Of a DNA stretch of 64,000 nt, positions 8,485 to 38,127 are shown piece after piece. The stretch comes from Candidatus Peribacteria bacterium. GTDB taxonomy: Bacteria > Patescibacteriota > Gracilibacteria > Peribacterales > Peribacteraceae. The stretch covers positions 128,001 to 192,000 of the forward strand of contig JBEPVF010000002.1 in the NCBI GenBank assembly GCA_041691135.1, written 5' to 3'. The notes beneath the pieces are model-generated. The model saw only the letters and a program-made list of their open reading frames with translations, was not told where the DNA came from and searched no databases. The position numbers were made by a program, and so were the translations under genes. Within the stretch, counting starts at the first letter, position 1; each line of letters starts with the position of its first letter.

Positions 8485-8559
8485 TCCCCTGTAGCTCAAT
8501 GGTAGAGCATCTCGCTGTTAACGAGAGGGTTACTGGTTCGAGTCCAGTCGGGGGAGCCA
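8485..8559 (+). tRNA. tRNA-Asn (GTT)
   Basis: Acceptor stem TCCCCTG/CGGGGGA, D-arm GCTC..GAGC, anticodon stem TCTCG/CGAGA with loop CT-GTT-AA, T-loop TTCGAGT, encoded CCA. Confidence 0.98.
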
Positions 8560-8581
8560 AACTTGATTTATATAAGATATA

Positions 8582-8609
8582 TTGATTAATAACAATTTAA
8601 GACTATAGT
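8582..8609 (+). promoter_or_regulatory. Sigma70-type promoter, leaderless start
   Basis: TTGATT-16-TATAGT, ATG 6 nt downstream. Confidence 0.55.
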
Positions 8610-8615
8610 ACTGCT

Positions 8616-11600
8616 ATGGCAGACAGTTTATTGATGCTTTTGAAGCAAACTGAGGCAGCCGAAGATAATGCGCTTTTGCAGAAGGTGAGAGCCATGAACA
8701 AGTGTGCAAAGGCTGATGCCGCAGTCGCAGGAGAGATTGCTTCTTTGGCGGAAAGATTACGTGATGCAATTGATGGAGGAAAAACTAGAAGTATTCAAAC
8801 TGCAATTGCTGAAATTAGAAAAGCAACAGAACAGATTATTTTAGCAGAATCTGATACTGGAAATCGCGAACCCGCTCTACCAAAACCAACAGAACAACAT
8901 CGAAGAGAAGCAATGGGATTTCCCCCTTTACCCGAACCGCCAGATTTAACCCCTGAAATGGCTCGAGCTTTTATAAAAGCTTGTAACGGAAAGTTAAAAT
9001 CTCCTGACTCTGAGCCCCGCATTGTAAGTGTCGGAAAATTAAAGTACGAAACTACAAAAACAGGATTTCTTAGTCTCGTTGGCCGTCATACTTTTGGAAA
9101 AAGTGGCTATTGCACTGCTGCTGTTCGCTATATAGAAATTATTGCAGAAGGCAAAACACATGTAGAGGCTAAACAACTTGCCGAGAAAGAAACTATCTTA
9201 AAGCCTTCTAAACTACCGAATCCGCCACATCTTACATCCGCAATGGCTCAAGCTCTTATAGCAACTTGTGATGGTAAATTAAGTTCAAAAGATGCAAAGC
9301 CACGAACTATTGTTATAGGTGAAAAAACATTCGAAGATAAAACACGAGCAATCATTATGCGAATTGGCTATAACGTTTTTGATGATATCAAAGCGTTTGC
9401 TCTTTCAATTCGCTACATTGAACTTTTGGCATCAGGTAAAAGTCATGCCGAGGCAAAGGCTATGACGAAAAAGGAGGACAATGCCATATTTCCAGTTCTC
9501 CCTAATCCACCAGATCTTACAGCTGCAATGGCCAAAGCCATTATTACAGCTCACGATGGAAAATTGCGCTCCTATGGCAGAGAGCCAAAAGTTATTTCTG
9601 TAGATGGACAAAAATATGAAGATAACCAAATGGCTTTAATTGGCCGTGTCAGTTACCACTTATTTGGAAAAGGTGGCATCAAATGGGGCCCTTCAATTCA
9701 TTATATTGAATTACTAGCGGAGGATAAATCACATGAAGAAGCTCACGATATAGTAATGGCTGACTCTATATCAGAAGAGACTGATCATCCGTCTTTGCCT
9801 AACCCTCCTTTATTTACAACGCAAATTGCAAAAAGTCTACTCACTGCTTGTAAGCGAGAATTAAGTTCAAAGGATTCAAAAAATCGAATAATTACTATTG
9901 GCCGTCAAAAATATCAAGATTCTGTGCGTTCAATATTGAGACGTATTGGATTAAATGTTTTCAATAACTTAAATGCTTTTACTTTATCGATCAGATATAT
10001 AGAGCTTATTGCCGAGGAGAAAACACATTTTGAAGCAAAACTGCTTGCAGAGACTGGAAATGAAGCCGAAGAAGATTATGAATTTGAACAACTTTCAAAG
10101 CTCAATCTAGGAGAGGTCATTTCCTTCTTTCGCTCTCAGGAAGGTGGCGATGCAAAATTAAAAATCTATCTCATGTTTGCACGTGGCTACAACGAAACTC
10201 AGGCAAATAAAATTGTGACTACTACCTTTAAAGCTTTGTATGGCTCAGGCTTGTACCGCAAAGAAGATGAATATCTCACATGGCCCGTCGATATGCCTCA
10301 GCCAAAACTATCTGTTGCTATTCCTCTTCAAACAGAAGGAACAACTATTACTCTGGCAGGTATTGCTCCTGAGTCTGAATGCGTTTTTATAAGTGGTCCT
10401 ATTAACTGTCGGAAGAAAATAGAGCCCGATGGTACGTTTAGTCTTCCTGTACCCTTGGCCATTGGCGAAACAAATGAGATTCGCATTATGAGCATTGATC
10501 GAACAAATAAGAGACGAAGTATGCAGAAAACTTTTGTCATCACTCAAGAAGGAGAAGTGGATGATACGGAAGAGCTCATTCGCTTACTAAGTGAACTGGG
10601 CGGACAATTGACGAAGCAAATACGCGAAGATCCGGGTAGACAGGAGTTCTTAGCCGAATGCATGGAACGGTTGCTCATTAAGAAGTTCAGCAAATCCTTT
10701 GAGGATGGTAAGCGATATACCCAAGAGCAACTTACAAAGGTCAAGCATCCTGAGCTGAAAAACATTATTCGGCGCGTTCTCGAGAACTTCCGCTGGATTG
10801 AAGAAATGAGTTTCCCGAATGTTCAAGAAGGTGAACTCATGTTCTTTCAAAAGTACTGCGTATATCGATTGCGCAAAGCGATCGATGATCCGCGTATGGA
10901 AGGTATCAATCTATGTAACGATCCGGGCCTCGGTAAGACACGCACAATCCTTGCAGCTGTTGCAGATCAAGATGCATCAATCTTCACGCACAACGCAGTG
11001 GTGAGCACGTGGAAAGAGGAAGCAGAAAAAGTATTGATCGATCCGGATCTGCTAGTTCTGAGAGATGATCATAAAGACAGGAAGAGACAGCTACGCGGCA
11101 GCCTTCATGAACGACGAGTAACAAATGTAGAGTTTTTGCGCAAAGTCGAAGACAAAGAAAGATTCGGATTAATCAGTTCTGATCAAACTGTTGTAGTGCA
11201 TGACGAAGCGCATAGTCGTAAGAATGAACATAGCGAGCAAAGCAAAGGAGCAAAAATGTTGCCTCACCGCTTTGTCATCAATGTGACCGCAACTCTTGCC
11301 CGTAATCCAACAGAATTGCGGCGCATGTTGCACACTGTTGATCCTGAAAGAAAAGAATTCAAATCCGATGAAGCATTCCGCAGAGCATTCCCTATGAGAG
11401 ACGCGCGGGCTGCCAGACAGTTAAAGTTAATCTTAGATCAATACACGATTCGTTTCCGTAAGCATGAAGTGTTGGAGGAAATTGATCCGAAGTTACCTTT
11501 AGAAGATCAACTACATCGCCTTCCACGCAAAGAACATATTTCGCCAAAAGTAATTGGTAACTTTGAGATGACCGAAGAGCAGGCGGATTCCATTTATCAA

Positions 11601-12587
11601 ATGTTCGTCAATTGGCCAGCATGGACCAAAAAGTATGGCAAATATATTCCGAAAGATGACGTGCATCAGGAAGATGGACTGCGCACCAATAGTAGAGAAG
11701 GGTTTGCGAAAATTCATGCCTATAGGCAAGTCATCAATAATCCAGGTTTCGCGGGCGTGCAAACAAATGAGGATCCAAAGGCATGGCAGATGCAACGGAT
11801 TGTTCGCAAGTGCTTTGTAGAAAATAGGAAGGTTGTGATCTTCTGTAAATATCAGGCGCAAGCAGAAAAGTATGCAGAGCTTTTCCGAAAATATAAGCCT
11901 GCTTTATACACAGGCCAAACGTCGAAAAAAGGAACTATCAGAAATCAAAGAACAGGAAAGCCAGCATGCTTTTCCAATGAGTTTGATGAAAACGGCTATC
12001 CCATCGAAGATGCGGAAGGCGCAGAAATGAGCCATTTGGATTATGAAAGGCGGACGTTCCAAAATGCTAATGAGCGTAAAATAATTATTGCTACATATTC
12101 GGCTGGATCCGTCGGAACCACTTTCACGGCAGGTAAGGTTATTATTTACGATGATCTCCCAACTGATTGTAAAGAAGACATTCAAGCTGAAGATCGTATT
12201 CACCGTATTGATCCAAATCGTCAGACTCACGCCACGGTTCAGTATTATCAAATGCAAAGCCGCTACCCAAGAAGTTTTCTTGAACGAATGAAAACCAAGT
12301 GGGTTCGACGCAACCGTGTCACTGGTACATGGGATGAATATAAAGGGAAATCCAGACCGAAGGATGACGATCTTAACAATCCTTGGTTCACTGCTCATGA
12401 AGCTTTTTTTGAGCAAGGAACGTATGACAAAGTTCAAAGTAGAAATCTAAAGGGGCAACGCACTATGTTCCACCTAATTAATGACGGGATTGCCGATGAA
12501 TCAACTCTCAGTGAAAATGATATTCAATTTAGCCTCTTCGCTGATGAAATTGAGAGAACTGGAACGCTAACGCCAAAGAAGAAATAG
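8616..12587 (+). CDS. SNF2-family ATPase/helicase with four N-terminal ~95-aa repeats and an Ig-like domain
   Basis: Motif I NDPGLGKT, II HDEAH, III TAT, IV KVVIFCKY, V ATYSAGSVGTTFT, VI QAEDRIHRI; repeats start at 8928, 9213, 9498, 9795. Confidence 0.88.
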   Translation: MADSLLMLLKQTEAAEDNALLQKVRAMNKCAKADAAVAGEIASLAERLRDAIDGGKTRSIQTAIAEIRKATEQIILAESDTGNREPALPKPTEQHRREAMGFPPLPEPPDLTPEMARAFIKACNGKLKSPDSEPRIVSVGKLKYETTKTGFLSLVGRHTFGKSGYCTAAVRYIEIIAEGKTHVEAKQLAEKETILKPSKLPNPPHLTSAMAQALIATCDGKLSSKDAKPRTIVIGEKTFEDKTRAIIMRIGYNVFDDIKAFALSIRYIELLASGKSHAEAKAMTKKEDNAIFPVLPNPPDLTAAMAKAIITAHDGKLRSYGREPKVISVDGQKYEDNQMALIGRVSYHLFGKGGIKWGPSIHYIELLAEDKSHEEAHDIVMADSISEETDHPSLPNPPLFTTQIAKSLLTACKRELSSKDSKNRIITIGRQKYQDSVRSILRRIGLNVFNNLNAFTLSIRYIELIAEEKTHFEAKLLAETGNEAEEDYEFEQLSKLNLGEVISFFRSQEGGDAKLKIYLMFARGYNETQANKIVTTTFKALYGSGLYRKEDEYLTWPVDMPQPKLSVAIPLQTEGTTITLAGIAPESECVFISGPINCRKKIEPDGTFSLPVPLAIGETNEIRIMSIDRTNKRRSMQKTFVITQEGEVDDTEELIRLLSELGGQLTKQIREDPGRQEFLAECMERLLIKKFSKSFEDGKRYTQEQLTKVKHPELKNIIRRVLENFRWIEEMSFPNVQEGELMFFQKYCVYRLRKAIDDPRMEGINLCNDPGLGKTRTILAAVADQDASIFTHNAVVSTWKEEAEKVLIDPDLLVLRDDHKDRKRQLRGSLHERRVTNVEFLRKVEDKERFGLISSDQTVVVHDEAHSRKNEHSEQSKGAKMLPHRFVINVTATLARNPTELRRMLHTVDPERKEFKSDEAFRRAFPMRDARAARQLKLILDQYTIRFRKHEVLEEIDPKLPLEDQLHRLPRKEHISPKVIGNFEMTEEQADSIYQMFVNWPAWTKKYGKYIPKDDVHQEDGLRTNSREGFAKIHAYRQVINNPGFAGVQTNEDPKAWQMQRIVRKCFVENRKVVIFCKYQAQAEKYAELFRKYKPALYTGQTSKKGTIRNQRTGKPACFSNEFDENGYPIEDAEGAEMSHLDYERRTFQNANERKIIIATYSAGSVGTTFTAGKVIIYDDLPTDCKEDIQAEDRIHRIDPNRQTHATVQYYQMQSRYPRSFLERMKTKWVRRNRVTGTWDEYKGKSRPKDDDLNNPWFTAHEAFFEQGTYDKVQSRNLKGQRTMFHLINDGIADESTLSENDIQFSLFADEIERTGTLTPKKK

Positions 12588-12745
12588 ATACGACTTCACC
12601 ATGGCACTCGCATGTCATTTTTAACAAAACCGATCAATCTACAATCGCTTAAAACCCCTTCTGAAAGAGAGAAAACGCCAGCTCCATCCGCCTCCAAGTA
12701 TCAGTAATCTCGGTTCGTACTTCGTACAGAGATGAGAGCCACTTA

Positions 12746-12773
12746 TTGACTTAATCAAAATTTAATTTAAAAT
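12746..12773 (+). promoter_or_regulatory. Sigma70-type promoter, near-leaderless start
   Basis: TTGACT-16-TAAAAT, ATG 8 nt downstream. Confidence 0.6.
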
Positions 12774-12781
12774 ATACAAAC

Positions 12782-15700
12782 ATGAAAAAAAATGTCCCTC
12801 CAGAAGGCAATTCAGAACCAATTCCTATTGAACAGGAATTACTTACTCCAGACTTTATCCATGCCATCGAAACGAGCACAGGGAAAAAAATTCAAGGAAT
12901 GACAACAGTTGATGCGACAAAATTTGAATTAATATTTGGAAGCGAGAAATTTGTGGATTCGGTTAGTAATTTTTTTCGTAGATTAGCTAGAAAACTTTTC
13001 TCTGATGGCAGCGCAGAAATGGCAAGAACATACTTAACACTTGTACGCGACGGTTTAGATCCAGCGATCGCTATTAAACAAATCCGTGAGCGACCTGAGA
13101 CGCATAGTACAAGAAAAGCAATTGAGAAAACCTTAAAAGGAAAAACAATACCTCCTGATCCTGCTTCATTTACGCCTAATGTCCTGCAGCAGGCCGAAGA
13201 TCAAATAGGCTTGTCCATAGCAGAAATAAGCGTAAGAGACAGCACTGAATTTACAGTCCAGATTGGCACTGCAATCTATACAGATAGGCCAAGTAGTCTC
13301 TTCCAAAGAATTGCAGGCGCTTTTTTTGAATCTCGCAAAGAATGTGCAAAAGCCAAGCACTATCTTGTTGAAAGAAAAAAAGGAAAGTCACATGAGGAAG
13401 CACTCGCCACAATTACAATTCAGGACCAGGAAAAGCCAAAGACCTTCCCAACAAATCCATCAGAAATAAGCGTGCCACTCATCATTGCTATCGAAGAAAG
13501 GTTGGGGAAGATTGAAAATATTAGAGTTGATGATACCACTGAGTTGGAAATTGTTTTAGAGGGACAAGTATATAAAGATAAATTTAATTTATTTTTGCAG
13601 AGGCTCTCGCGAAAGTTGTTTTCGACTCACCTTCAATTTGCTCGGACAAAACAATACTTGGTACTAATCAGAGATGGCCAAGCTCCAATAATAGAAACAG
13701 ATGCAAAGACAGGTCGTAGCGAAGCAGAACCGAAAAGAGGAATTCCTGTTGATAGCAAAGTATTTACTACACATTTTATTTCAGAACTTGAAATTGCAAT
13801 AGGTAAAACAATAGAAGATCTCGATGTAACAGATAACATAGATATTATTATCCGTATAGATGACGAACTGTGTACTGACAAAGTAAACAATTTCCTTTCG
13901 AGGATAAGCGCACAATTTTTTGGAGTGAGGACTCAAGGCCTAAAAGCCAAAAGATATTTGGTCCGCAGGAAAATGGGTGATTCTCATCAGGAAGCGTTGG
14001 AACAAGCTCAAACAGTCCTTCAACCTATTCCTATTACCCCAAACTTTATTTCAGTGGATCTTGTGCGCGCCATTGAAACAGTTTGTCAAAAATCTATTGA
14101 TGAAATGAGCAGTGAGGATAATGCCTATTTTATTGTCACCGTTGGAGCCCAAGAATACAAAGATACACCGATGAATATTTTTACTAGGATTGCCAGAAAG
14201 TTTTTCGGAAGTCAAGAAAGAGATAAAGGCAGAAAATATCTAAAATTTCGTAAAGAGGGCTTAGAGCACGATTTGGCCATTGAAGCTGCTACAAATAGCG
14301 ATGATGCCCACATAGAAATTGGACTTGAACGTTTAGAAAAATTGCAATTGGAGGATGCTATTGCCCTCTTTCAGAACGACCCTCTAAAACTGAGATTGTA
14401 CATTCAGTTCGCCCACCCAGAGCTTTCAGAAGAAGAAATAGATCGCCTCGTTATGCACTCGTTCCGGGGTCTTATCTGTGTAACCACCATAACAAAGGAA
14501 GAAGAATATCTGACCTATGATGTTAAATTACCAAAAATAAGAATTGAAGGGACTCCAGAAGAGACAATGGAAGAAGCTATCACTATTACAGGACGCGCAC
14601 CTAAGGCTGATGCCGTCTACATTGCAGGTGTGTGGAACAGGCGAGTGAAAGTTTCTGATGATGGAACTTTTAGCGTCCGTGTTCCTTTGAAAATCGGTCA
14701 AGAGAATGAAATTCGGATTATGGCCATTAATCGTGAAAAGAAAATTCGAAGTGATAGACATATTTTCATTGTTGAGCAGAAAGGAGAGCCGGATGATATA
14801 GAGGCTCTTATTCGCACACTTTGCGGACTCGGACGCGATACCCTCGCAGCAATCCGCCGCGACCCTGGACGACAAGAACTTCTCGTGGAATACACCGAGC
14901 AATTCCTTATCAAAAAATTCACTCACTCATTTAAGGAAGGAGTACGTTATGTAGAACAACTAATAAAACAGAATCCTACGCCAGCTATTCAATCTATCCT
15001 TCGAACAGTTCTTGCCAATTTTAGAAAAATTCAAACTGCCGAGTATCCCAACATCCGTCCAGAGAGCCCAATGTACTTCTTCCAAAAGTTCTGCGAGGCG
15101 CGGATACAGAAGGCGATCGACGCTGGAGAGCCAGGTATCATTCTCGCTAATGACCCTGGGCTTGGAAAAACCAGAAACGCATGGGCTGCCGTCGACCGCC
15201 ATAAGGCTCTTATTGTTGCACCTAATAGCGTTGTGAGTCCATGGGGCGAGGAAGCGGCTAAGTTTTTAAAGCGATCAGATATCCTCACGCTCCAGAACTT
15301 GCCCTATCCTGAACGAGAGGAACTATTGCGCACAAGCAATGCACGCCATCGGGTTACCAATATTGAATTCGTGCGAGACGTTGAGAATGATGAGCGCTTC
15401 AATCTCCTGTCAGATGAAGATACTGTTATTGTTCACGATGAAGCGCATAGTAGAACGAACCTCAAAAGCCAGCAGACAAGAGGCATGCGCAAGCTGCGAG
15501 GGAAGTTTCTATTACTTCTTACTGCAACACCCGCAAAGAACTCCAAGACATTCCGGCGCATGATGCACAGTGTAGAGCCGGATAATCCTGTTTATACAAA
15601 TGATGCCGCTTTTGAGCGAGCTTTCCCTACTCGAGATCCGCAAGCACTACGAACTCTTAGTCTCATTAAGAGGAAGAGAACCATTCGTTTCCGCAAGCAG

Positions 15701-16776
15701 GACGTGCTGGAAGAAATGGACGCCTCAAAGCCGCTTTCCGAACAACTCAACAGATTGCCAAGAAAAGAATTTGTACCGCCCCAAGAGCTAGGAGAGTTTA
15801 CGATGCATGAGCAACAAGCATGGGCAATTTATGAAATGTTCCTCAACTGGGACGAATGGTCAGAAAAATATAATAAGTACTCTTGCCGAAAGATGAAGTT
15901 GCCAGGGCGGATAAGCTACGCAAAGGCGATGGTTTTTCCAAGAAACATGCGCTTCGACAAATTGTAAATAATCCCGACTATATTGGTTTGCCAGAGTTAA
16001 AAGACAGGAAAGCAGCAGCAGCGAAGCGCGCAGTTAAAGAGTCGCTTAGCGAGAACAGGCCGGTTGTCATCTTTTGCAAATACAACGCACAGGCAAAAAA
16101 GTATGCTGAGATGTTCGCACAGTATAATCCTGCCATTTACACTGGTATGACAAGCGATGAAGGCGTGAAGCGCAATGAGCGCAGGAAACCTATTCGCTAT
16201 CGGAAGAATGAGGAGGGAGGTTGGGAATTTGATGAAAAAGGTTATCCAATTGAAGATCCAAAAGGTCAGCCGATGCTTGCGCTCGACTACGAACGTTTGA
16301 CCTTTCAGCATGCAGCAGATAGAAAAGTTATTATTGCAACCTACTCAGCTGGTGCAGTCGGCACCACGTTCACCAAAGGAAAAACCGTCATCGAAGATGA
16401 TCTAGCAGAAGATTGCATTGAGGAAATTCAGATGGAAGACAGAACGCACCGTATCGACCATGAGCATCAGACACATCACACTGTAAAGTATTATAAGATG
16501 ATAAGTAGGTATCCAAAAAAGTTTCTCGCAGAGATGGAAAGGCGATGGGTTCGCCGGACACCAAATGGTTGGTACGAAGAAGTATTTGATCGAGAGACTG
16601 CCGAAGAAGAAGGATTATCTACTGCTTTTGAAACATTTTTCGAACAGGGCACATACGACGAGGTGAAAATAAAAAACCTCCAAGTTCAAAGGCATATGTT
16701 TCACCTCGTGAATGATGGCATTGCCGATGATAATATTCTTAATGAGGGACAGCTGCCTTTCCAGGGAATTGACTAA
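12782..16776 (+). pseudogene. Second SNF2-family ATPase with five N-terminal repeats and an Ig-like domain; frameshift at ~15881 (real or assembly error)
   Basis: ORF 12782-15967 has NDPGLGKT, HDEAH, LTATP; ORF 15883-16776 has VVIFCKY, ATYSAGAVGTTFT, QMEDRTHRI; collinear with the first paralog across KYNKY|LPKDEV vs KYGKYIPKDDV. Confidence 0.85.
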
Positions 16777-16778
16777 GT

Positions 16779-17727
16779 ATGGCAACAAGAAAGATCCACC
16801 AGCGGGAAAAACCAAACGCAGATGCGGCGTCACTCATTCATACTTGGCTATCACAATATAATCAGGAAAATACACGCAAAGCATACGAAGCGGATTTTGC
16901 ACAGCTTGCAATATTTACTGGATACGTTGGAGACATGATGAATGGGATCCTTCAGATCACACCAAGCGAGGTCATTGCCTGGATTGACCATCTTAAAGAA
17001 TGTAAAACTTCAGAAGCTTCTATTGCACGAAAGCTTTCCTGCGTACGGTCTTTTTTGATCATGTCGTGAGAGCGGAGTCCGCGAAGTGAACCCGGCCAGT
17101 AGCCATTTCATCGAATGCTCCTATTCAAAGAAAGTCATTAAGACACAGGCAATGACAGCAGAGATGTGCAGAAAACTCCTCGATGCACCAAGCCTAGAAA
17201 CACCTATTGGCATTCGTGATCGAGCCATTATAGGAATGTTTGCCTATACGGCATGCAAACTCTCTGAGCTCATTGGTATGAACGTGGGTGATTACAAAAA
17301 GAAAGAAGAGTCACAGATCGCGATCCGTCGCACAGTCAATACTGAGCGAGAACGGTTAGTTGGATTACATGAAGAAGCAACTGGCAGGCTAGAAGAATGG
17401 ATTGATGTAGCAGACATCGGCTCTGATAAAAATGGCCCCCTCTTCCGACCGAGTGAACATTTCCGCCACGTGCACAAGGGATTTATTCGAAAGAGAATGT
17501 CACGCGTGCCACTTCTTCTTATGCTCAAGAAGTACGGCGGTGAAACCGGGGTGCCAAATATTACATCGCAAATGTTCCGTGTCTCTGCTTTGCAGATGGC
17601 AATGAAGCAAAATATCGATCTTCTTACATTGCAAGAATTTGCTGGTCATGCGGATGTGGATTCTACAGAATCGTATGTAAAAGATTCAGCGAGGAGAGAA
17701 AGTCCATCGAAGAAAATCCAGTATTAA
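16779..17727 (+). pseudogene. Tyrosine recombinase (XerC/D-like), frameshifted at ~17051-17076, with atypical catalytic residues
   Basis: N-terminal core-binding domain (NTRKAYEAD...ASIARKLSCVRSF), then NPA, RDRAII, GPLF, QMFR, QEFAGH..ST..Y. Confidence 0.85.
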
Positions 17728-17884
17728 AGTGCATTAGGCAATCATAGATCCTCGTATGAACTCAGGTTACGTAAAACGTACATTTTTTACAGCCAAATAC
17801 ACTGTCCGCAGATCTAGAAGGAGCCAGGGCGGGGAGCCAAAATTTGCTTATTAAAGCCCTTTGAAATATTTACCTACTCGGCTT

Positions 17885-19127: not shown

Positions 19128-19332
19128 GAACTGACGCTTCCCAACTAGTCGAACTAGATGTTCTACTTTTGACTGAAAAAAAGACGAAAAGTAATCACTG
19201 TCGAGCAGAACGTTTTTAATAGTGTCGGATTCGGGGAGCCAGAATAAACTTCTGCCACAAACAAGTCAGGATTATAATTACTTACTCCCAGAACCTGCGT
19301 AGCCGCAGCCAAAGCATGGGTCGAGGAGCCAT

Positions 19333-29912: not shown

Positions 29913-30347
29913 CTATTTTTTCCTTGCTGCCAGCCCATCCAATCCCGGCTTTTTCTCCGCAATTTTGAGGATTTTTTTGAGGATATCCAAATTCAGATCA
30001 TCCAATTTCTTAAAGCTGATGCAACTCTTGCCCACACTCACGTTCCCAAGCTCCTCCTTATACGTTTCCGCAAGGTACTGGCCATCCACAACGGCACAGA
30101 CATACAGACTGATGTAATTCTTTTGATTGGCGAGTCCGATTGTGTGCCATTGCAGTATCTCTTTCTTGTTGTTCTTGTACGGAAAAGAACCGTAGCCGAG
30201 CATGTTGGCCGCAAAGTGGGCCTTCAACGTGGGAGCTGCCTTCTGGATGAAGGCATGCAAAAATTCCAAGATTTCCCGACGCTCGGGCGTAGCAGCTTGC
30301 AGATACTCGTCCACTGTCTTCGCCTTTGTGGGCTTGAACATGTTCAT
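29913..30347 (-). CDS. DUF1801 protein, copy 2
   Basis: Full-length paralog of 19333-19764 (MNMFKP...VGKSCI.FKK). Confidence 0.88.
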   Translation of the reverse strand: MNMFKPTKAKTVDEYLQAATPERREILEFLHAFIQKAAPTLKAHFAANMLGYGSFPYKNNKKEILQWHTIGLANQKNYISLYVCAVVDGQYLAETYKEELGNVSVGKSCISFKKLDDLNLDILKKILKIAEKKPGLDGLAARKK

Positions 30348-30456
30348 AGACGTATTCTATCAGAACATCATTCTGGGTTGCATTCGAATAACTTGGATTA
30401 AGCCGAGCCATCCGTATTCATACGCAATACAACTATTCTTGTTATAGAATGCAGGT

Positions 30457-30732
30457 ATGAATCTTGACCAATGGAAATAGCAATTGGAACAGGACGGTTT
30501 TACCAATGTACACGTGTGTCCTATTCCACCGAATCAGGACTTGCCGGAACACACGCATGACAAGCACACAGTCCATATCATTCTCGATGGAGAATTGACC
30601 ATCATCGGTGCAGAGGGAACGTACACTGACAAGCTCGGCGATCGCGTGGAGTTTCCGGCTGGGACTGTGCACAAAGCGCGAGGTGCGACGGATACGGGAA
30701 CGACGATTATTGGGGTGAAGGGAGGGGCATAG
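30457..30732 (+). pseudogene. Small cupin protein with in-frame TAG at codon 8 (or shortened start at TTG 30484)
   Basis: MNLDQWK*QLEQDGF...PEHTH...HIILDGEL...FPAGTVH cupin motifs. Confidence 0.7.
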
Positions 30733-30875
30733 ATTTAGCGACTACTTTAAACGCATGAAGCCAAATCGAGTCATTTTTCGTCACTACTCACGGTACTCAC
30801 ACCGTAACTAAGATAACCAAAGCCATTAAATTCGGTTATTGTTGACAAAATATTAAATGTTATTAAATTATAAAT

Positions 30876-32516
30876 ATGTTCAGCACTGAATATATCGCTT
30901 CCAACATCGGTTTTGCTGATTATCTTCTACGTCAACCCAAGATTAATGCCAGTGCTATAAAAAAGGCAGAGCAAGAAGCTGATCGTGGCAGGCATACAGC
31001 TGGTACCGCCGCTTTTTTTCGTCACTCAATGGCTCAGACAATAGATCAGTCACGTCCACGTTTTCGAAGTGCCTTCGATGCAGCAGTAAAAAATACACCT
31101 ATCGTGGTTGATGATAAAAATCGCTATACTCAGGAGATGGATACATTGAGCAACATTCTATTGGATGAGTTGTCTGTTGGTCGCAGGTTTTCAGCCATAC
31201 CCAATGAAGTTAATGAAATACATAACGTGACACACGAACTTGATCAAAATATTGAAGGGCATCTTCAGCAATCAGATGCCCTACAGGGTGACCGACCCGC
31301 AGAAATCGTACATCTTCTTTGGGATACGCAAATGACCCTTAGCATCCTATTAGGATTGGAAGCACGTGCTGCTGCCGGTGTTTCTATGAAAGGCAGAATG
31401 GTGGGTCTTCCCGTTCTTCTGTTGAACAATGTTTCGAAATCAATTGCCGCCCTCCAATTACGCCGTCTTCTGCGCAAGATCCCAAAGCTTGCTTTTGCAG
31501 TCGAGGATTTTGAAAAAAATCAGTACCGCGTACCTGGCATTCTTCCAGAAAAAGTGGACATTATGTTGGAGGAGGCAAAAAAAGCAAAAGGTCGTCTTAC
31601 AGTCGGAGCGGTTGATGCCAAATCCCATCTGCTCCTTGGGAAGGCATTGGAATTGACTGCAGGTACTTGTTGGGAAAACACAATCGGCGAACTACCCGAT
31701 GGAGAAATGGGCCTGATATCATCAAAGCCAATGGGAGATTTTGTTTACAGCTATCAGAGGTCAGATCAGCAGACGTTGAGAGAAATGGTAGAAATTGATA
31801 CGGATCATACTACTAAGTTATCGACGGATGATTCAGAACCATTTCCTATGTTCATAAGTAGCAAGGGTAACCTGTGCATTATAGAGAGTTGCCAGTTTGC
31901 GGGGCTCTCTCCTGAACTATTACCGGACAATTCAGTAAAGCAAATGAAAGATATCCTAGAAGGTTCGCGTTCAGGGATCATACGACTTATGCAAGCTCAA
32001 CCACTCATCAGAAAAAATCTCGCATCACTCGGCAGACCTGTAGCAAGAATCGTGGACAGAGACACTCACTATATAGTAATCGACAAGAAATACTCTGATT
32101 TGGCTGAAGGCTTGCTCATGGATATTCGGCACCGCGATAAAGACAAAGGCCCTTTCATGGATGGTTTTTTAGTGGGCAAAAGCAAGCCATTATCTAAATC
32201 TGAAAACGCTCCACTGCCCTTAGAGCCAGAAGCAATGACCATTCGGGATTTGCTAAGTGAAACTGAAAGGGGTCATCTACTTTTTTCTGAATTAGTGGTG
32301 TTACTCGCTCAGCTTGGCATTGAAAAAGAGACGGGGAAAGGCAGTCATACAAAATACACCAATCCGGTTGCGGATAGATTCTGCATTCTCTCGAATCGCT
32401 ATACACGTACTCATAATACTGAGATTCCAATTGGAATAGTAAGAGATAGCCTTGAAGATTTACATCTTTCTGAAGAGCAAATGAAAATGTTGGAATCAGC
32501 TTTAGAAAAATTGTAG
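30876..32516 (+). CDS. Hypothetical protein with C-terminal HicA-like mRNA interferase domain
   Basis: C-terminus ELVVLLAQLGIEKETGKGSHTKYTNP...EIPIGIVRDSL; TTGACA promoter at 30842. Confidence 0.65.
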   Translation: MFSTEYIASNIGFADYLLRQPKINASAIKKAEQEADRGRHTAGTAAFFRHSMAQTIDQSRPRFRSAFDAAVKNTPIVVDDKNRYTQEMDTLSNILLDELSVGRRFSAIPNEVNEIHNVTHELDQNIEGHLQQSDALQGDRPAEIVHLLWDTQMTLSILLGLEARAAAGVSMKGRMVGLPVLLLNNVSKSIAALQLRRLLRKIPKLAFAVEDFEKNQYRVPGILPEKVDIMLEEAKKAKGRLTVGAVDAKSHLLLGKALELTAGTCWENTIGELPDGEMGLISSKPMGDFVYSYQRSDQQTLREMVEIDTDHTTKLSTDDSEPFPMFISSKGNLCIIESCQFAGLSPELLPDNSVKQMKDILEGSRSGIIRLMQAQPLIRKNLASLGRPVARIVDRDTHYIVIDKKYSDLAEGLLMDIRHRDKDKGPFMDGFLVGKSKPLSKSENAPLPLEPEAMTIRDLLSETERGHLLFSELVVLLAQLGIEKETGKGSHTKYTNPVADRFCILSNRYTRTHNTEIPIGIVRDSLEDLHLSEEQMKMLESALEKL

Positions 32517-32552
32517 TCGGACAGGAACCGAATTATGTTATAGATTTGAATC

Positions 32553-33059
32553 ATGGATGCCCTATCGATTCTAGAACTGGCAGAGATCCGTAAAGCACTC
32601 GTGCAAATCTTTGCGTTCACGTTGGAGCTTCAAAAAAGTAACCCCTTGGCTTGCTATATAAAGGCGCCCCAAATTCCTTCTATATTTTCAGAGTCGCTGA
32701 CGGTTCACCTCTTGCGAAGAGGACTGATATTGCCTGAACTACAAGCAGCCACATTTACTATCGGAGGCATTGCTGATGTAACTGGAATCCAAGATAAAGT
32801 ACTGACTAAAATTGAGGTAAAGGCAACCGGAGACAAAGGCTTTCAACGTCTTGGCATTAAAGACCTGCAGGCTGATTATCTCGTATGGATACATTTTAAT
32901 TTATTTTTTAAGGGTCAAGCACATGAACCTATGACAGTATGGACGGTTGCGAAGCCAGCAAGATTTTTCCAAAAACCAGGAATACTGACGATGAAGAACT
33001 TCAAATTAAAGGCTGCTGCTCTGCAAGAACATTCTATTGCATTCGACGACTTACATTAA
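32553..33059 (+). CDS. Putative PD-(D/E)XK restriction-like nuclease
   Basis: FSE helix, ADV...KIEVKATG, ADYLVW. Confidence 0.6.
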   Translation: MDALSILELAEIRKALVQIFAFTLELQKSNPLACYIKAPQIPSIFSESLTVHLLRRGLILPELQAATFTIGGIADVTGIQDKVLTKIEVKATGDKGFQRLGIKDLQADYLVWIHFNLFFKGQAHEPMTVWTVAKPARFFQKPGILTMKNFKLKAAALQEHSIAFDDLH

Positions 33060-33060
33060 C

Positions 33061-33087
33061 AAAAGGGGCCGCTCTCGCAGCCCCTTT
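33061..33087. terminator. Intrinsic terminator between convergent genes
   Basis: AAAAGGGGC-N-GCCCCTTT. Confidence 0.7.
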
Positions 33088-33125
33088 CTATTCCCTTGCC
33101 GATGATGTTTTGTTGCGGGATCACA

Positions 33126-33554
33126 TTATTGACCCTTGGGACCGCCTGGCCCCGATTCGATCTTGGTCACATTGAAGGCGCTATCAAACTTCACCGTCAC
33201 ATGTGAACCGTCCGCTTTGGTCATGTGCGCTTCGTAGGCATCGCCTTCGGCGTCAGTCTCGACGCGGTCGACGGTGCCGCCGGGGACTGCCACAAGGGCA
33301 GCAGCAGTTACCTTGGACGCATTGTCTCCCGTCAGTAACTCTTCCTTCGTGCCGTTCGCTCCGACGTGTCCGCCTTGGTGAGGATCGAATTGAGTATCTG
33401 CAACATCCGTATCCGGATCTGCCTGGCTCACTTGCGCCTGTGAGGTGGTGGCGGAGCTGACTTGCTGTGCGCTGGATATCTGGGCGAGGAGTGGAATCGC
33501 AAGTACCATGCTGGACATGCCGGCGATGGCGCCGATCGTGAATTTGTTCTTCAT
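33126..33554 (-). CDS. Secreted PepSY-like protein
   Basis: MKNKFTIGAIAG signal peptide; AAALVAVPGGTVDRVETD...YEAHMTKADG..VTVKFD. Confidence 0.8.
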   Translation of the reverse strand: MKNKFTIGAIAGMSSMVLAIPLLAQISSAQQVSSATTSQAQVSQADPDTDVADTQFDPHQGGHVGANGTKEELLTGDNASKVTAAALVAVPGGTVDRVETDAEGDAYEAHMTKADGSHVTVKFDSAFNVTKIESGPGGPKGQ

Positions 33555-33678
33555 AGAATGAGGTGGTAAGAAGTAAAAAAGAAGTAAACGTTGTCGCGAC
33601 AATTGCCACTATATGTACGTGGCATTAAGACTCGGATAACGTCGCTGCCACTTTCACAACGTTGTACTATTGATCGAC

Positions 33679-34482
33679 ATGATTCGCCTCCTCCAGCCTT
33701 CTGATCGGCAATTGATCCTCGACTATGTCTATGCAGCTGAAAAGGAGAACATGTTCATCATCGGCAGCTTCAACCGGCCTGAGCCGTTTGAAAACAACGT
33801 GTATCTCGGTAGTTTTACGAACGATCTGCTGGTAGGACTTGGAACATTTTTCAAGCGTTTCGGCAGCCTCGTTGTTCATGCGCATGATGAAGAGGTCCTC
33901 AGAAATGTGACGAACTATTTCGGCGAACGAAAAGTGCCGATTGAATTTGTTCCAGCCTTTAAGAAGTATGCCACTCCAACGATCGAAGCACTTCGGCACT
34001 TCGGCTATGAGCCAACCGAGATCGCGGATCAAACAGTTTTTCTGCTGACATCAGATTCCTTCACCGATCACTCCGATGAATCGACGGCGTTGGCAACGGA
34101 ACAGGACATCGATGAAATCATCCGTCTGCAATGGGCAGCTGATGAAGAAGATCCGCATCAGGAAATTACAGAAAAGGATCGGCGGCAAATCCTGATCGAC
34201 TCGGAATTCATCACGAAACTCGACGGCAAGATCATCTCGAGCGCCAATGTTCAGGGTGTCTCGGAGCACTACATTCAGATCGGCGGCGTCGCAACCCATC
34301 CAGACTATCAAGGCAAAGGATATGCCAAACGAACAGTGAGTGCCGTCTGTCGATACTGGATGGCCAGAGGAAAGCACGTCCTGCTTTTCTGCCGGAATGA
34401 AAATGTGGCTGCGCTCAAGGTCTATGCCGCACTAGGCTTTCAGTCCATCGATGAATTTGTCATTGGTGTCTATAATGTGTAA
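33679..34482 (+). CDS. GNAT acetyltransferase (two-domain, FR47-like)
   Basis: IGGVATHPDYQGKGYA...N.AALKVYAALGF. Confidence 0.9.
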   Translation: MIRLLQPSDRQLILDYVYAAEKENMFIIGSFNRPEPFENNVYLGSFTNDLLVGLGTFFKRFGSLVVHAHDEEVLRNVTNYFGERKVPIEFVPAFKKYATPTIEALRHFGYEPTEIADQTVFLLTSDSFTDHSDESTALATEQDIDEIIRLQWAADEEDPHQEITEKDRRQILIDSEFITKLDGKIISSANVQGVSEHYIQIGGVATHPDYQGKGYAKRTVSAVCRYWMARGKHVLLFCRNENVAALKVYAALGFQSIDEFVIGVYNV

Positions 34483-34655
34483 TTAACGAAAACCCTGCTT
34501 TTTCCTTTAAGGAATGGGACAATCGCCTACTTTTTTTACTCTAATTGACTGTTGAATGGCTTCAGGATCAGTTGTGGGCTGGTAAGGGATTGAGCCAAAT
34601 TTCAGCCATTAGTCGTAATATTGACTAATTCATAAAAATTAGTTAAAAAATACGT

Positions 34656-36206
34656 GTGTCCGAAGACCAAAGCGCTGATGAAAGGCAATACTTTGAGAAC
34701 CTTGCGACAAATTGTCGTGCTCAATCAGTAACAGTACCTCACACTCAAACTAGTAAGCGACTTGCCAAACTTGATGACCATCAAGTGGAAGCGATGGAAA
34801 AAATTGCTGAAGCTGTAGAAGGAGGAATTGAAAGACAACAAAATACAATCCGTGGCTTAATCACACATTGTTGCGGCTCAGGTAAAACTTGGGTTCAGAC
34901 CAATCTTGCAATTGCCTCAGCTCTTGCTCGTAAGAATTCAGACAATCAAAACGGAAAGGATATTCTTGTCGGAACAGAACGATCTTCCATCCTTCAACTC
35001 GAAGACTATTGCAATAATGCAGGTCTAGATACAGGCGTATGGGGCGCTGGCAGGCGCATGTTAGACCGACCAACTTTAGTGACCACTATTCAAGCGCTTC
35101 AGGTAAATCAAAGAGATCTCAATCGACTTTTTGGAAACAACATACACTTGCTTGTCGGTGACGAAGCAGATTTGTATTTAAGCGGACCTCGTTCAGAAGT
35201 GATCAAGCAAGTTCCCGCCAAAGTAAAAGTTGGCTTCACGGGAACACCCGATTTGCCCGACGGGAGACACGCGAGTGAGGTATGGGGTGAAGTTCTAAGT
35301 ACACTCTCTTTGCGCGATGGAATTTTAAAAAGCAAAAACGTTCCACCATATTACTATCTCTATGGAGCAAACATCGATGAGTCTTCTTTCAAAATGCGAG
35401 GCGATGACTACGATCCAAGTACTGTCGCAGCTGCACTTGCACAAGTAGAAATCTGGAACGCACTTCCTGATCTATATGATCGCCTCGTACCCATTGGTCG
35501 GCGCAAGGAGTTACCGACGCTGATGTATTTGCCAAATGTTGATCTTGTTCGTTCCGTGACTGAGGAATTACGGAGGCGACACGGTGATAAATTGGATATT
35601 CGCTACTGGTCAGGTGATGATACCTCTTCGAGTGAGCTCAAGGATGATATAGAAGACTACGATAATGGTAACGTGCACATTCTGGGATTATGTGAGATGG
35701 GCGGAAGAAGTTTAAATTTCGTAAATGCCCGAATCCTCTTCGATTGTTATCCAACTCAGTCTAAACGCAAGTACGAGCAACGAGTGGCAAGAGTAATGAG
35801 GCGTATTTGGCCAGGCTCAGAGTTACATAACCGTGGCATTAGAAAAGAAGGATGCACTATTATTCAAATAGTTCCCACACGTCGCCAGGGTAGCCATTAC
35901 TTTCGCCCGGTAACCCTACCCGATATCTTAGGTGAAGATACTTGGATAGATGTAAAAAAAGGACAACCCTTGCTGGCAGGACAGCGTAATCACGATGACT
36001 CCAATGGCGCTCCTATCTTGCAAGATATTATTGATTTACGTGAGCAAATCCAAGCGCAGAACCCTGACTATTCACTCCAGCTCATTCAAGAATTAGACGT
36101 ACTACGAGAACTACGTACACGTGGAAATCTGCCGCGAGCAGATCTCGACGGAGGACGTTTTTACTTAGGCCGAAAATATGTCCGCAGAGGATCTCCCACT
36201 GAATAA
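34656..36206 (+). CDS. SF2 DEAD/DEAH helicase (ResIII-like)
   Basis: HQ Q-motif, CGSGKT, TTIQAL, GDEAD, FTGTP, GRSLN, EQRVARVMR. Confidence 0.85.
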   Translation: MSEDQSADERQYFENLATNCRAQSVTVPHTQTSKRLAKLDDHQVEAMEKIAEAVEGGIERQQNTIRGLITHCCGSGKTWVQTNLAIASALARKNSDNQNGKDILVGTERSSILQLEDYCNNAGLDTGVWGAGRRMLDRPTLVTTIQALQVNQRDLNRLFGNNIHLLVGDEADLYLSGPRSEVIKQVPAKVKVGFTGTPDLPDGRHASEVWGEVLSTLSLRDGILKSKNVPPYYYLYGANIDESSFKMRGDDYDPSTVAAALAQVEIWNALPDLYDRLVPIGRRKELPTLMYLPNVDLVRSVTEELRRRHGDKLDIRYWSGDDTSSSELKDDIEDYDNGNVHILGLCEMGGRSLNFVNARILFDCYPTQSKRKYEQRVARVMRRIWPGSELHNRGIRKEGCTIIQIVPTRRQGSHYFRPVTLPDILGEDTWIDVKKGQPLLAGQRNHDDSNGAPILQDIIDLREQIQAQNPDYSLQLIQELDVLRELRTRGNLPRADLDGGRFYLGRKYVRRGSPTE

Positions 36207-37671
36207 CGACGGCGATAAGGAGCGATGGGGCATTCCAGAAGGATGGAGTGAGGTCTTGAATTTACCTGTAAAAACTATTAAAGATCGAATGGAAATTTCA
36301 GAAGGCGATCAACACTTGGACGGAAACGGCAGAATGAGAATCTTCTATGCTGAATCGTATGTGCGCGAGCAACTTAAAGATGTCTTGGAAATGTCAATAG
36401 CACAAAGAGGAGGAGGTTTCATGCGAAAAGGCGAATTACATGGCCACAAAAAATTTTGGTCAGACTATTTAGAAGAAAGTTTCAAAATGGAAAAGGGCTG
36501 TATATCAATACTACTAAATCAATATGGAGAAGGCGTCACTGGTATAACTCATGCTGGCACCATAAGAGATGAGGCATATTTTCCTGAGAGCCAAGTAATG
36601 AATATTGTGGAAGCAATTCCTATGGCCGATAAAGAAAAATGCCTAAGACAAGGAGATAATTACTATTGGACAATCCACAGTAGTCCTGATGACTATCGTG
36701 ATAGATTTGATTTTCAATATGACGAAATTGTCATTGCAAAATCTCCATCAGGCAAAGCTAGAATTTATTATCTCGAGGAAGCTGTAGAGCGCGTTAAAGG
36801 ATACAATCCGCACAAATTCGAGGAGGAGATGCTTCTAGCTACAGAAAGACGTATCAAAATGAACGAAGCAGAACGTCTTGCTCCACAATTCGACTTAAAA
36901 AGACAGTATATGCGCTGTGATAGAAAGACTGTTGAATCAATGACAATCACCGAAGCTAATAATATAGAATCTATGGTTGCAATTGCAATAGATACTCATC
37001 CTACATCAGCAGACTTTTTAACTTTTCGAAACAGTATACTGCGCTTTAGAATTGGATCTTGGCAAAGATTTGCAAAAGTATTTGGCTACAATGGTGATCC
37101 AAATGAGGATTTCATACTTCGTCTAAAAATTGCAGAAAGGATATATGGAAAAGAAGATCCATTTGTTATTACAAAAACATTAGAAACTTATGAGCTTCTG
37201 AAGTACCCCCATGAAGAGTTGGGTGAAGTTGCACTTCAATGGGCAGATGATATAAGAGCAAAGGCGGTAAACTCTGAAATATGGTTCAATTGCGCGGAGC
37301 AATTGGCTAAGAAACATTACAGGATTAGTGATACTGCTCTTCACAAATTTGCAAAGAGAGTGGGCTATTCAGCAGGACGACTTAAACACCCTGAGGTGAG
37401 AATGATAATTGGATTTATCCTCTATGGAACTAATGATCAGTTCTTATTTTCGCGCATAGAGCAATATGAGTCGCTAAACCTTCTGATTAGAGGAAGATTT
37501 TTTAATGTGCCTAAGAAAGATCCAGAAATAAGGCACGATGCTACTGGAGAAATCATCGACCCTTCTGCTGATTTCGTAATTAGTCCATTTGCCCCCGAAT
37601 CACAGAAAGCTCCATTTTGGCTTAAACAACTTCGACAAAGACTAATTGACTCTAAAACTGCACAAGAATAA
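36178..37671 (+). CDS. Hypothetical protein with two kinds of internal repeats
   Basis: Overlaps the helicase by 29 nt; (F/Y)..ES.V-like motif x3 and FAK..GY...R..I...YG..D.F x2. Confidence 0.75.
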   Translation: MSAEDLPLNNDGDKERWGIPEGWSEVLNLPVKTIKDRMEISEGDQHLDGNGRMRIFYAESYVREQLKDVLEMSIAQRGGGFMRKGELHGHKKFWSDYLEESFKMEKGCISILLNQYGEGVTGITHAGTIRDEAYFPESQVMNIVEAIPMADKEKCLRQGDNYYWTIHSSPDDYRDRFDFQYDEIVIAKSPSGKARIYYLEEAVERVKGYNPHKFEEEMLLATERRIKMNEAERLAPQFDLKRQYMRCDRKTVESMTITEANNIESMVAIAIDTHPTSADFLTFRNSILRFRIGSWQRFAKVFGYNGDPNEDFILRLKIAERIYGKEDPFVITKTLETYELLKYPHEELGEVALQWADDIRAKAVNSEIWFNCAEQLAKKHYRISDTALHKFAKRVGYSAGRLKHPEVRMIIGFILYGTNDQFLFSRIEQYESLNLLIRGRFFNVPKKDPEIRHDATGEIIDPSADFVISPFAPESQKAPFWLKQLRQRLIDSKTAQE

Positions 37672-37701
37672 CGTTCCCCTTAATCCTTCCCCTCCTCCCT
37701 T

Positions 37702-38127
37702 ATGGATTTCTCCAACATCAATCTCCTTGCCGTCCTCGTCGCAGCCATCGCTGCCTTTGTGATCGGCTTCCTGTGGCACGGGCCGCTCTTCGGCAAACAG
37801 TGGATGGCGATGATGAACATTCCTCAGTCGGAAGTGGATGCTATGCAGGCCAAGGGCATGGGACCGATGGTGCCCAGTATGATCGCCGCGCTGGTGCAGC
37901 AGATCATCACCGCATTCGTCATGGCACACCTCGCCAACGCACTCGCAATCACCGATGCCACAGCCGCCGTGCTGTTTGCCGTCTTGATCTGGCTCGGCTT
38001 CTTCGCAACGACGATGCTCAATGCCGTGCTGTGGGAGAAGAGAAAGATGAATCTGTATCTGTTCAACATCACCTACCATCTCGTCTCGCTCATCGTTGTC
38101 GCACTGATCGTGGTGCTGTGGCGCTGA
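37702..38127 (+). CDS. DUF1761 membrane protein
   Basis: INLLAVLVAAI..F.IGFLW.GPLFGK.W signature, four TM segments. Confidence 0.88.
   Translation: MDFSNINLLAVLVAAIAAFVIGFLWHGPLFGKQWMAMMNIPQSEVDAMQAKGMGPMVPSMIAALVQQIITAFVMAHLANALAITDATAAVLFAVLIWLGFFATTMLNAVLWEKRKMNLYLFNITYHLVSLIVVALIVVLWR

Follow-up and report, generated by a model that had tools for sequence, protein, structure and literature searches.

Two Snf2-type ATPases with exchangeable N-terminal repeat arrays on a probable decaying tRNA islet of a Peribacteria genome

The window analysed here is a stretch of 64,000 nucleotides (nt) from a Candidatus Peribacteria genome (assembly GCA_041691135.1, contig JBEPVF010000002.1, positions 128,001 to 192,000 of the forward strand). 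Its sole tRNA gene, tRNA-Asn(GTT), identified with ARAGORN, lies directly upstream of three co-oriented genes, which make up the whole content of positions 8551–17841, about 9.3 kb. Two of them encode P1 and P2, members of an array-SNF2 family in which an N-terminal array of tandem repeats precedes a conserved core with a Snf2-type ATPase. The third encodes a tyrosine recombinase, whose ATG at 16779 is found 2 nt past the P2 stop codon (TAA, 16774–16776), as stated in an initial annotation of the sequence. The features are listed in Table 1.

The stretch reads as an eroded foreign islet integrated at the 3' end of tRNA-Asn, combining a tRNA end, a direct repeat, an integrase inside and a deviant composition, as in tRNA-integrated islands. 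The direct repeat, the 11-mer GGGGAGCCAAA, occurs only twice in the 64 kb, at 8551 and 17831, where 0.03 copies are expected, and two or more copies were obtained in none of 100 shuffles. Local alignment of the tRNA-Asn end with the spacer holding the copy at 17831 gave a score matched by 4 of 2000 shuffles. The guanine–cytosine (GC) content is 0.40–0.45 within the islet versus 0.50–0.58 in the flanks, and rises again at the right repeat. Because the direct repeat measures only 11 bp, the island looks old or eroded. In two genomes of the same genus the order of a DCC1-like gene followed by tRNA-Asn is kept, and behind the tRNA (with 3.3 kb and 0.7 kb of sequence available) there are other genes or the contig end, without an SNF2 gene.

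The recombinase is the islet's own dead Xer-like integrase and not a working partner of the SNF2 proteins. The SAM-like and the catalytic domain are both present, but a frameshift places them in different frames, and neither an intact frame nor the full R-K-H-R-H/W-Y set was found. Alignment with XerD (1a0p) shows Arg-I replaced by Lys, the catalytic Lys by Arg and His-II by Gln, while Arg-II, His-III and Tyr are retained. The substituted R, K and H are kept in all 12 of the nearest relatives (26–40% identity; those with labels are of Planctomycetes type and from other bacteria outside the Candidate Phyla Radiation, CPR), so that the substitutions are private to the window copy. Together with the frameshift, they argue for decay rather than for a conserved 'altered' recombinase. 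The catalytic alteration described in the initial annotation is thus real with respect to Arg-I, Lys and His-II, yet it belongs to a single, frameshifted gene. The presence of the gene as an integrase is explained by the att-like repeat and the tRNA. The host genome contains two further tyrosine recombinase genes, one of them matched at 151 bits.

P2, spanning 12782–16776, is a paralogue of P1 that has been broken by a frameshift into open reading frames (ORFs) of 1,061 and 297 amino acids (aa). The initial picture of two paralogues of about 1,320 aa with the same architecture therefore holds for the architecture and for P1, with its 1,323 aa, but not for P2 as a continuous protein. The first P2 ORF aligns with P1 until P1 residue 1010 and departs from the family frame after its own residue 1033; at the nucleotide level, the alignment ends in frame 1 at 15880 and resumes in another frame at 15883. 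The frameshifts of P2 and of the recombinase recur with 0 differences in a Logan contig (15500–17500, about 19x) and are therefore not the artefact of one assembler. This contig derives from the sole public run holding the stretch, probably the source sample, making the assembly independent and the reads not. An alternative genetic code was also considered for the broken frames and rejected, as the first P2 ORF stops at TAA and the frames differ, which recoding cannot join. No RNA data were listed as carrying the stretch.

As had been noted from the sequence, the ATPase halves of the two proteins are conserved and their arrays diverged: the cores are 46–56% identical, the arrays about 20–25%, and the repeat copy number is four in P1 and five in P2. 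The host genome has no core copies other than these two. In a quick maximum-likelihood tree of the core (IQ-TREE with SH-aLRT, a Shimodaira–Hasegawa-like approximate likelihood-ratio test; 51 rows, P0048 having been dropped for short coverage; P and L numbers denote family proteins and loci), P1 groups with P0002, P0003 and P0004 (SH-aLRT 100) and P2 with P0014 and P0059 (89). The branches starred on the tree separate the two groups; P1 and P2 are not sisters, and the tandem pair is therefore not a local duplication.

Table 1. Features of the tRNA-Asn islet, in window coordinates
Feature	Position	Strand	Basis or remark
tRNA-Asn (GTT)	8485..8559	+	ARAGORN; Rfam tRNA 71 bits; 3' end is the proposed attL
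Left copy of the 11-bp direct repeat GGGGAGCCAAA	8551..8561	+	terminates tRNA-Asn
P1, intact array-SNF2 protein, 1,323 aa	8616..12587	+	ORF; Pfam SNF2-rel_dom, Helicase_C, ResIII; 46 relatives in the protein collection
Array of P1 (residues 104-489), four type-A repeats of ~95 aa	8925..10082	+	
First part of the family-conserved core of P1: helical linker, Ig-like beta-sandwich (about 10344-10547), helical bundle	10083..10850	+	AlphaFold2; Glucodextran_B in relatives
P1 Snf2-type ATPase, two RecA-like lobes, motifs I-VI, conserved C-terminal helices	10848..12584	+	Foldseek
Spacer between P1 and P2, with a terminator-like hairpin and T-run, a conserved block and, at 12746-12773, a promoter-like site (10 of 12)	12588..12781	+	
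First P2 ORF of 1,061 aa, with five type-A repeats (12782-14323), the linker, the Ig-like domain and ATPase lobe 1	12782..15967	+	
P2 frameshift, approximate site, within the conserved KY-[IL]-PKD stretch	15881..15882	+	alignment to P1
Second P2 ORF of 297 aa, with ATPase lobe 2 and the C-terminal region	15883..16776	+	53% identical to P1 residues 1011-1305
N-terminal recombinase fragment with the SAM-like core-binding domain	16779..17069	+	Pfam Phage_int_SAM_1 8.2e-9
Recombinase catalytic-domain fragment, in another frame	17086..17727	+	Pfam Phage_integrase 1.7e-17; XerD 1a0p 6.3e-9
Right copy of the 11-bp direct repeat (attR remnant)	17831..17841	+	104 nt past the recombinase stop, at the GC step

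Structure prediction shows a Snf2-type motor fold for the conserved core. In Pfam, P1 matched SNF2-rel_dom at 38.1 bits (cut-off 24.9) and Helicase_C at 33.7 bits (cut-off 23.5), with values of 39.3 bits and, in the second ORF, 30.5 bits for P2. An AlphaFold2 (AF2) model of P1 residues 490–1323, with 50 aligned sequences, reached a predicted local distance difference test score (pLDDT) of 86.2 and a predicted template-modelling score (pTM) of 0.86; the order of elements is helices, a seven-strand sandwich (model residues 88–155), a helical bundle, the two-lobe ATPase and C-terminal helices. The sandwich is immunoglobulin (Ig)-like and matches Pfam Glucodextran_B in P2 (3.9e-6) and also in P0002 and P0022. 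Foldseek matched the core to ISW1 with an E value of 8.7e-21, and the top matches had E values of 1e-17 to 1e-20. INO80, ISW1 and SNF2h were matched at a probability of 1.00, with template-modelling (TM) scores to the target of 0.73–0.75, those for INO80 being 0.74–0.75 at a root-mean-square deviation of 4–5 Å. The top 50 fold matches were ISWI, INO80, DDM1, ALC1, Mot1, CSB, Sso1653, ZorD and the like, and the resemblance of motif VI to SMARCAL1 proposed earlier did not emerge as a specific one.

Family conservation starts at about P1 residue 490, the junction between array and core. Motifs I (GLGKT), II (DEAH) and VI (QAEDRxHRID) are intact in P1, as previously annotated, and are invariant or nearly so across the family, with G771, K774, T775, D863, E864 and H866 invariant and Q1190, R1194 and R1197 near-invariant. 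A subclade comprising P0019 and P0020 carries variant motifs (DEGH for DEAH, APGTGKT as Walker A, QAEGRIRRID as motif VI) on motors that are otherwise well conserved. Neither Pfam nor the fold search with the core revealed a nuclease, methylase or phospholipase D (PLD) domain in the islet proteins, in agreement with the initial annotation. P1 matched no NCBIfam family, and PHROGs recognised the core as a generic DNA helicase only, with nothing for either array. The novelty suspected at the outset was upheld to the extent that Pfam, PADLOC, NCBIfam and PHROGs gave no full-length match to a characterised system. The array-SNF2 protein is a known kind of enzyme, a Snf2 motor, with a previously unseen repeat array.

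The repeat unit of P1 and P2, which we call type A, was modelled with AF2 on P1 repeats 2–3, using an alignment of 46 repeat pairs from the window and 11 loci. At a pLDDT of 94.6, the unit is predicted to consist of a helix, a beta-hairpin and three helices. Foldseek found no relative of the two-repeat model, the best E values being 0.37 in PDB and 0.15 in BFVD; the repeat profile had a best E value of 0.042 against PDB sequences, no usable match in the ESM Atlas and nothing in Pfam. The fold of this ~95-aa repeat appears to be undescribed in the literature searched, and no description of the array-SNF2 family was found in the literature on CPR or Peribacteria SNF2 proteins and on HNH-type repeats. 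SWI2/SNF2 ATPases in CPR are mentioned generically in one source (10.64898/2026.07.13.738296).

The type-A repeat is rare. Its profile recovered 44 proteins among 1.84 billion representatives, and it was found in none of 400 other genomes sampled across the phylum. Thirty-four of the 44 proteins lie outside the initial family set, and the family core is present in 4 of these 34. Seven of the 30 without the core were scanned, and in five of them type A is joined to a different superfamily 2 (SF2) scaffold: SNF2 with Helicase_C and Methyltransf_11 (twice), SNF2, ResIII/DEAD with the array at the C-terminus, and an array placed between ResIII and Helicase_C. One protein consists of 18 type-A repeats and nothing else. 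In homogenised arrays (P0008 and the L003 protein), the per-column entropy is 0.3–0.6 bit in helices 1, 3 and 4 and 0.9–1.9 bit in the loop before the hairpin, the hairpin, helix 2 and the loop that follows. The repeat thus consists of a conserved scaffold and a hypervariable face formed by the hairpin and helix 2.

Comparison of array and core within the family, made on sequences, shows the exchange of whole arrays of different repeat kinds at a fixed junction, about residue 490. Among 52 family proteins, 21 carry type A (1–10 copies) and 18 carry a repeat of about 60 aa, type B (1–7 copies), which in P0011 corresponds to the homing-endonuclease-associated Pfam family HNH_repeat (PF18780; 43.8 bits, cut-off 26). 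In sister proteins, HNH_repeat arrays occupy the exact position of the type-A array of the window. Further members have arrays of helix-turn-helix (HTH)-like repeats; for P0038, ESM Atlas clusters matched HTH_23 and HTH_17 at 0.84–0.87, which we treat as a lead only. The repeat types are intermixed inside well-supported shallow clades of the core tree, where P1 (type A) is sister to P0002 (type B). The cores of P0019 and P0020 align over 846 residues at 86% identity and without a gap, yet the preceding ~395 and ~353 residues have no similarity. A distant subfamily (L025, L028, L033) has a short N-terminus, and the next two genes encode stand-alone arrays of ~70-aa repeats without a Pfam match. 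The initial proposal of a modular translocase with a swappable array is therefore supported by the predicted Snf2 fold, by copy numbers of 1–10 and by changes of repeat type between closely related motors.

Array-SNF2 genes are accessory genes that ride on small tRNA islets. The core occurs in 22 of 200 genomes of the order, that of the window included, in 16 of 151 high-quality genomes and in 17 of 84 genera; none of the four other genomes of the genus has it. In 20 of the 22 genomes it is present at one place only, the exceptions being the genome of the window (G000), with its tandem pair, and G046, where separate contigs each hold a short fragment, two in all. When P1 residues 500–1323 were used as the query, 48 family proteins of 753–1,739 aa, including the two window ORFs, were retrieved at E values of 1e-100 or below; the few with labels are from Peregrinibacteria or Peribacteraceae, with one partial Gracilibacteria and one 'Bacteroidales' sequence. 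Taking one genome per species gave 43 loci, of which L001–L042 are family loci and L043 is a weak generic SNF2 match. The record labels of 32 of the 43 are Peregrinibacteria or Peribacteria, which fits the restriction to CPR envisaged in the initial annotation. The other loci are labelled Micrarchaeota (3), Omnitrophica, Elusimicrobiota, Bacteroidales, Altimarinota or unclassified, and six of them (L022–L024, L027, L035 and L038) lie on contigs of metagenome-assembled genomes bearing the labels Micrarchaeota, Bacteroidales, Omnitrophica and Elusimicrobiota. Members under labels other than Peribacteria could reflect mis-binning or transfer beyond Peribacteria. Giant ORFs of 3,378 aa (L031) and 4,242 aa (L035) also hold the family core, at about 30% identity.

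The surroundings of the gene vary between genomes. Clustering of ORFs across the loci gave no neighbour family in more than four loci and no synteny. Among 116 flanking ORFs, two per side, the commonest Pfam family occurred only three times, and Phage_integrase was not among the families with at least two matches. The GC content of the gene is at least 3 points below that of its flanks in 16 of 32 loci and above it in two. In the window and in five of the 43 loci (L016, L017, L022, L030 and L041), no more than 230 nt separate the gene from the 3' end of a tRNA or tmRNA, and it is always on the 3' side of the tRNA. At L017 (8821–12645), tRNA-Ala is followed by a 1,120-aa SNF2 gene alone and by a 45–57-nt copy of the 3' part of the tRNA, with no recombinase between the repeats. 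Linkage of homologues to tRNAs and integrases was seen in part, the tRNA side in these five loci, but a recombinase similar to that of the window within 10 kb in none of the 42 others. Likewise, tblastn within 10 kb of the 42 other family loci found no second full copy; the coupling to a recombinase and the tandem arrangement, which had been taken as features of a system, are peculiar to the window, where P1 and P2 are not even sisters. At L006 (9702–9877), a second copy of the last ~33 nt of tRNA-Thr and the bases downstream of them follows after 81 nt; it is 1.4 kb away from the SNF2 gene, on the side facing away from that gene, and may be the scar of another insertion.

On balance we favour the reading that the locus is a decaying tRNA islet carrying mobile, array-targeted double-stranded DNA (dsDNA) translocases, whose role would probably lie in genetic conflict. 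The cargo of the ~9.3-kb islet would be two non-sister members of a rare, array-guided Snf2 family restricted to Peribacteria, with the islet's own integrase as the third gene, and decay would have left the frameshift and three lost catalytic residues in the integrase, the frameshift in P2 and an attR reduced to 11 bp. Each protein would combine an exchangeable N-terminal specificity array with a conserved core made up of the linker, the Ig-like sandwich and a Snf2-type dsDNA translocase. We infer that the array is a targeting module and that its ligand is DNA, because its position is shared with HNH-type and HTH-type repeats, because type A is fused to SF2 motors in five of seven proteins and because the arrays can be long and regular. 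With the hypervariable face of its repeats, the array may hold the protein at a given DNA sequence or at a feature bound to DNA, and the tethered motor may pump the adjacent duplex at the expense of ATP, extruding loops or stripping bound proteins. The protein might then act as a single-gene conflict module, in defence or in competition between mobile elements, spread as minimal tRNA-targeting islets; a role in defence or element rivalry is our guess, prompted by mobility and diversification. More tentatively, the type-A unit might be a new, programmable nucleic-acid-recognition repeat, each unit reading a short stretch of DNA, with arrays that are interchangeable with HNH-type and HTH-type ones and aim SF2 motors; targeting of the kind known from transcription activator-like effectors (TALEs) would then be joined to a translocase. 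Equally speculative is the extension that its users are Peribacteria and a few other uncultivated lineages, that its motors include Snf2, Snf2-methyltransferase and ResIII enzymes, and that it spreads as single-gene tRNA islets.

Several observations weigh against the favoured reading. On the side of the islet, both frameshifts rest on the reads of one sample and the attR repeat is short (11 bp), and the two congeners, with 3.3 kb and 0.7 kb available, did not yield the right-flank synteny that an exact empty site would require. On the side of the array, the searches returned no structural or sequence relative of the repeat that would speak for DNA binding, and the arrays vary in net charge between +86 and -13, the array of P2 (-5) and that of P0042 (-13) being acidic. 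With regard to conflict, the flanking ORFs are housekeeping genes (LysRS, L1, S9, MutS, TrmD and the like) and not defence genes. Among 50,697 phage records there was no family member, only 11 generic SNF2 matches with at most 26% identity and 52% coverage; IMG/VR likewise contained none, its best match reaching 28% identity and covering motifs only. A nuclease or effector, present in most known helicase-based defence systems, is not found in the islet, and the PADLOC matches are weak, covering ~200–260 motor residues at E values of 1e-9 to 1e-11. With no effector domain, no defence genes nearby and no copies on phages, a conventional defence system is less likely.

Among the alternatives, the most serious is that the arrays bind a protein or another non-nucleic-acid ligand and serve as a sensor or adaptor, recognising for example phage proteins or a partner of the host cell and switching on the motor. 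Protein-binding repeats just as typically pair a constant scaffold with a hypervariable surface, and the acidic arrays of P2 and P0042, the Ig-like domain and the lack of a DNA-binding fold relative all point the same way. This is nevertheless rather unlikely, since sister proteins carry HNH_repeat and HTH-like arrays at the same position, type A is fused to nucleic-acid motors in five of the seven non-family proteins examined, and the near-regular arrays, with as many as 18 units, point to a polymeric ligand. A related possibility keeps DNA as the target and moves it to another cell: the CPR cell would deliver the protein as a TALE-like effector, the array finding host DNA and the motor perturbing it. 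The logic of the repeats is indeed like that of TAL effectors, the record labels are those of episymbiotic-type CPR lineages, and the distribution is patchy and mobile; in view of the fact that neither a secretion signal nor secretion genes were seen in the islet, we regard this as improbable.

The arrangement of the islet itself had suggested that the SNF2 pair and the altered recombinase form one functional system, perhaps with the recombinase as a non-catalytic DNA-binding subunit. The genes are indeed tightly packed in a single orientation, only 2 nt separating the end of P2 from the recombinase ATG, and the recombinase keeps Arg-II, His-III and Tyr in a C-terminal ORF open over 213 codons. 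We consider such a system very improbable, because a search within 10 kb revealed no similar recombinase and no second full copy in L001–L042, Phage_integrase is absent from the families matched by at least two of the 116 neighbours, and the recombinase is frameshifted, with catalytic changes that none of its 12 relatives shares and a presence for which the tRNA and att-like repeat account. Least credible to us is an ordinary housekeeping remodeller or transcription factor of Peribacteria, similar to RapA, that lies beside the tRNA by chance. The housekeeping neighbours in other genomes and the status of a single gene without partners would suit it; its occurrence in 22 of 200 genomes and in none of the four congeners, the lack of synteny, the deviant GC in 16 of 32 loci, the att repeats of the window and of L017 and the unrelated N-termini on near-identical cores would not.

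The P1–P2 spacer is a copy of a recurrent intergenic module of the genus, about 160 nt long, which comprises a hairpin with a T-run, a conserved block and a promoter-like site. Over 165 nt it shares 73% identity with a spacer from another genome of the genus (L116, 4383–4544), located between HIT and HAD genes, 1.8 kb behind tRNA-Asn. In the genome of the window itself, an ORF on contig C3 has a partial copy on either side (L118, ~470–640 and ~1495–1650). Two other identities of the spacer were considered and rejected: a structured RNA (folding z = +1.24, no Rfam match) and a displaced tRNA end marking the boundary of stacked cassettes (alignment score matched by 1210 of 2000 shuffles). The initial annotation had assigned each gene its own promoter; the sites amount to consensus matches only, and the region contains 14 of them versus 17.1 ± 4.3 in shuffles, with no excess, so that the assignment was not sustained.

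Some observations concern the wider surroundings of the islet. A weaker third copy of the tRNA-end motif, CGGGGAGCCAGAAT, is located at 19232–19245, 1.4 kb beyond attR and past a membrane-protein gene and a MarR gene, and may be the trace of an older islet boundary. The GC content of the window is lowered once more over 30001–38000 (0.43–0.47 versus ~0.50–0.55). In the same genus, an orthologue of the upstream DCC1-like gene (L113; G152:C42:8812-10140) contains one in-frame TAG.

If the arrays do read DNA, they would constitute a new modular recognition fold beside zinc fingers, TALEs and PUF/PPR repeats, one that comes pre-wired to a motor and, in relatives, to a methyltransferase. If the favoured reading is true, CPR bacteria with minimal genomes would trade single-gene, sequence-targeted translocases on tiny tRNA islets. 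Regardless of either, a motor that changes its whole targeting module at a constant junction, a fold that is predicted with confidence but has no relatives and a rarity of 44 in 1.84 billion are of use for annotation and for targeted experiments. The negative result also matters, as the recombinase is a dead integrase and not part of a new system.

Compared with known Snf2 translocases (ISWI, INO80, DDM1, ALC1, Mot1, CSB and archaeal Sso1653), P1 has the same two-lobe fold and all helicase-like motifs, but it is only 13–20% identical to them and its family lacks a nucleosome-related accessory domain, having instead its own linker, Ig-like domain, C-terminal extension and N-terminal repeat array. 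ZorD, DrmD and DpdE are, like P1, bacterial SNF2 motors on accessory DNA, and the apo structure of ZorD is fold match number 24. The likeness to Zorya is confined to the motor, as ZorA, ZorB, ZorC and the C-terminal nuclease of ZorD were found neither in the islet, which encodes P1, P2 and the recombinase only, nor beside the homologues. Similarly, DrmA, DrmB, DrmC/E and the methyltransferase of DISARM were found neither in the islet nor among the 116 homologue neighbours, the match to DrmD being partial (3.5e-5), and DpdE, which belongs to the dpdA–K cluster for 7-deazaguanine modification of DNA, matched at 1e-9 to 6e-11 over ~200 residues, with none of the DpdA–K partners in the islet or beside the homologues.

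The repeats of TAL effectors are 33–35-aa units of two helices with a variable di-residue. Type-A arrays resemble them in being tandem and sometimes near-identical, in varying on one face and in their variable copy number; they differ in a unit of ~90–95 aa with a beta-hairpin, in an unrelated fold and in the fusion to a motor, and so are not TAL repeats. The type-A repeat itself matches neither HNH_repeat (PF18780) nor any other Pfam family. In Type I and Type ISP restriction enzymes, a specificity module holds the site while an SF2 motor reels in DNA; the likeness is one of proposed mechanism only, as the islet has no methyltransferase, no HsdS-type target-recognition domain and no nuclease. 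With tRNA islets and cis-mobilizable elements (CIMEs), finally, the locus shares insertion at a tRNA 3' end, a direct repeat, a distal tyrosine integrase and deviant GC, L017 representing an integrase-less version, and it differs from typical ones in its unusual compactness and in a cargo that comprises just one or two genes, all from one family.

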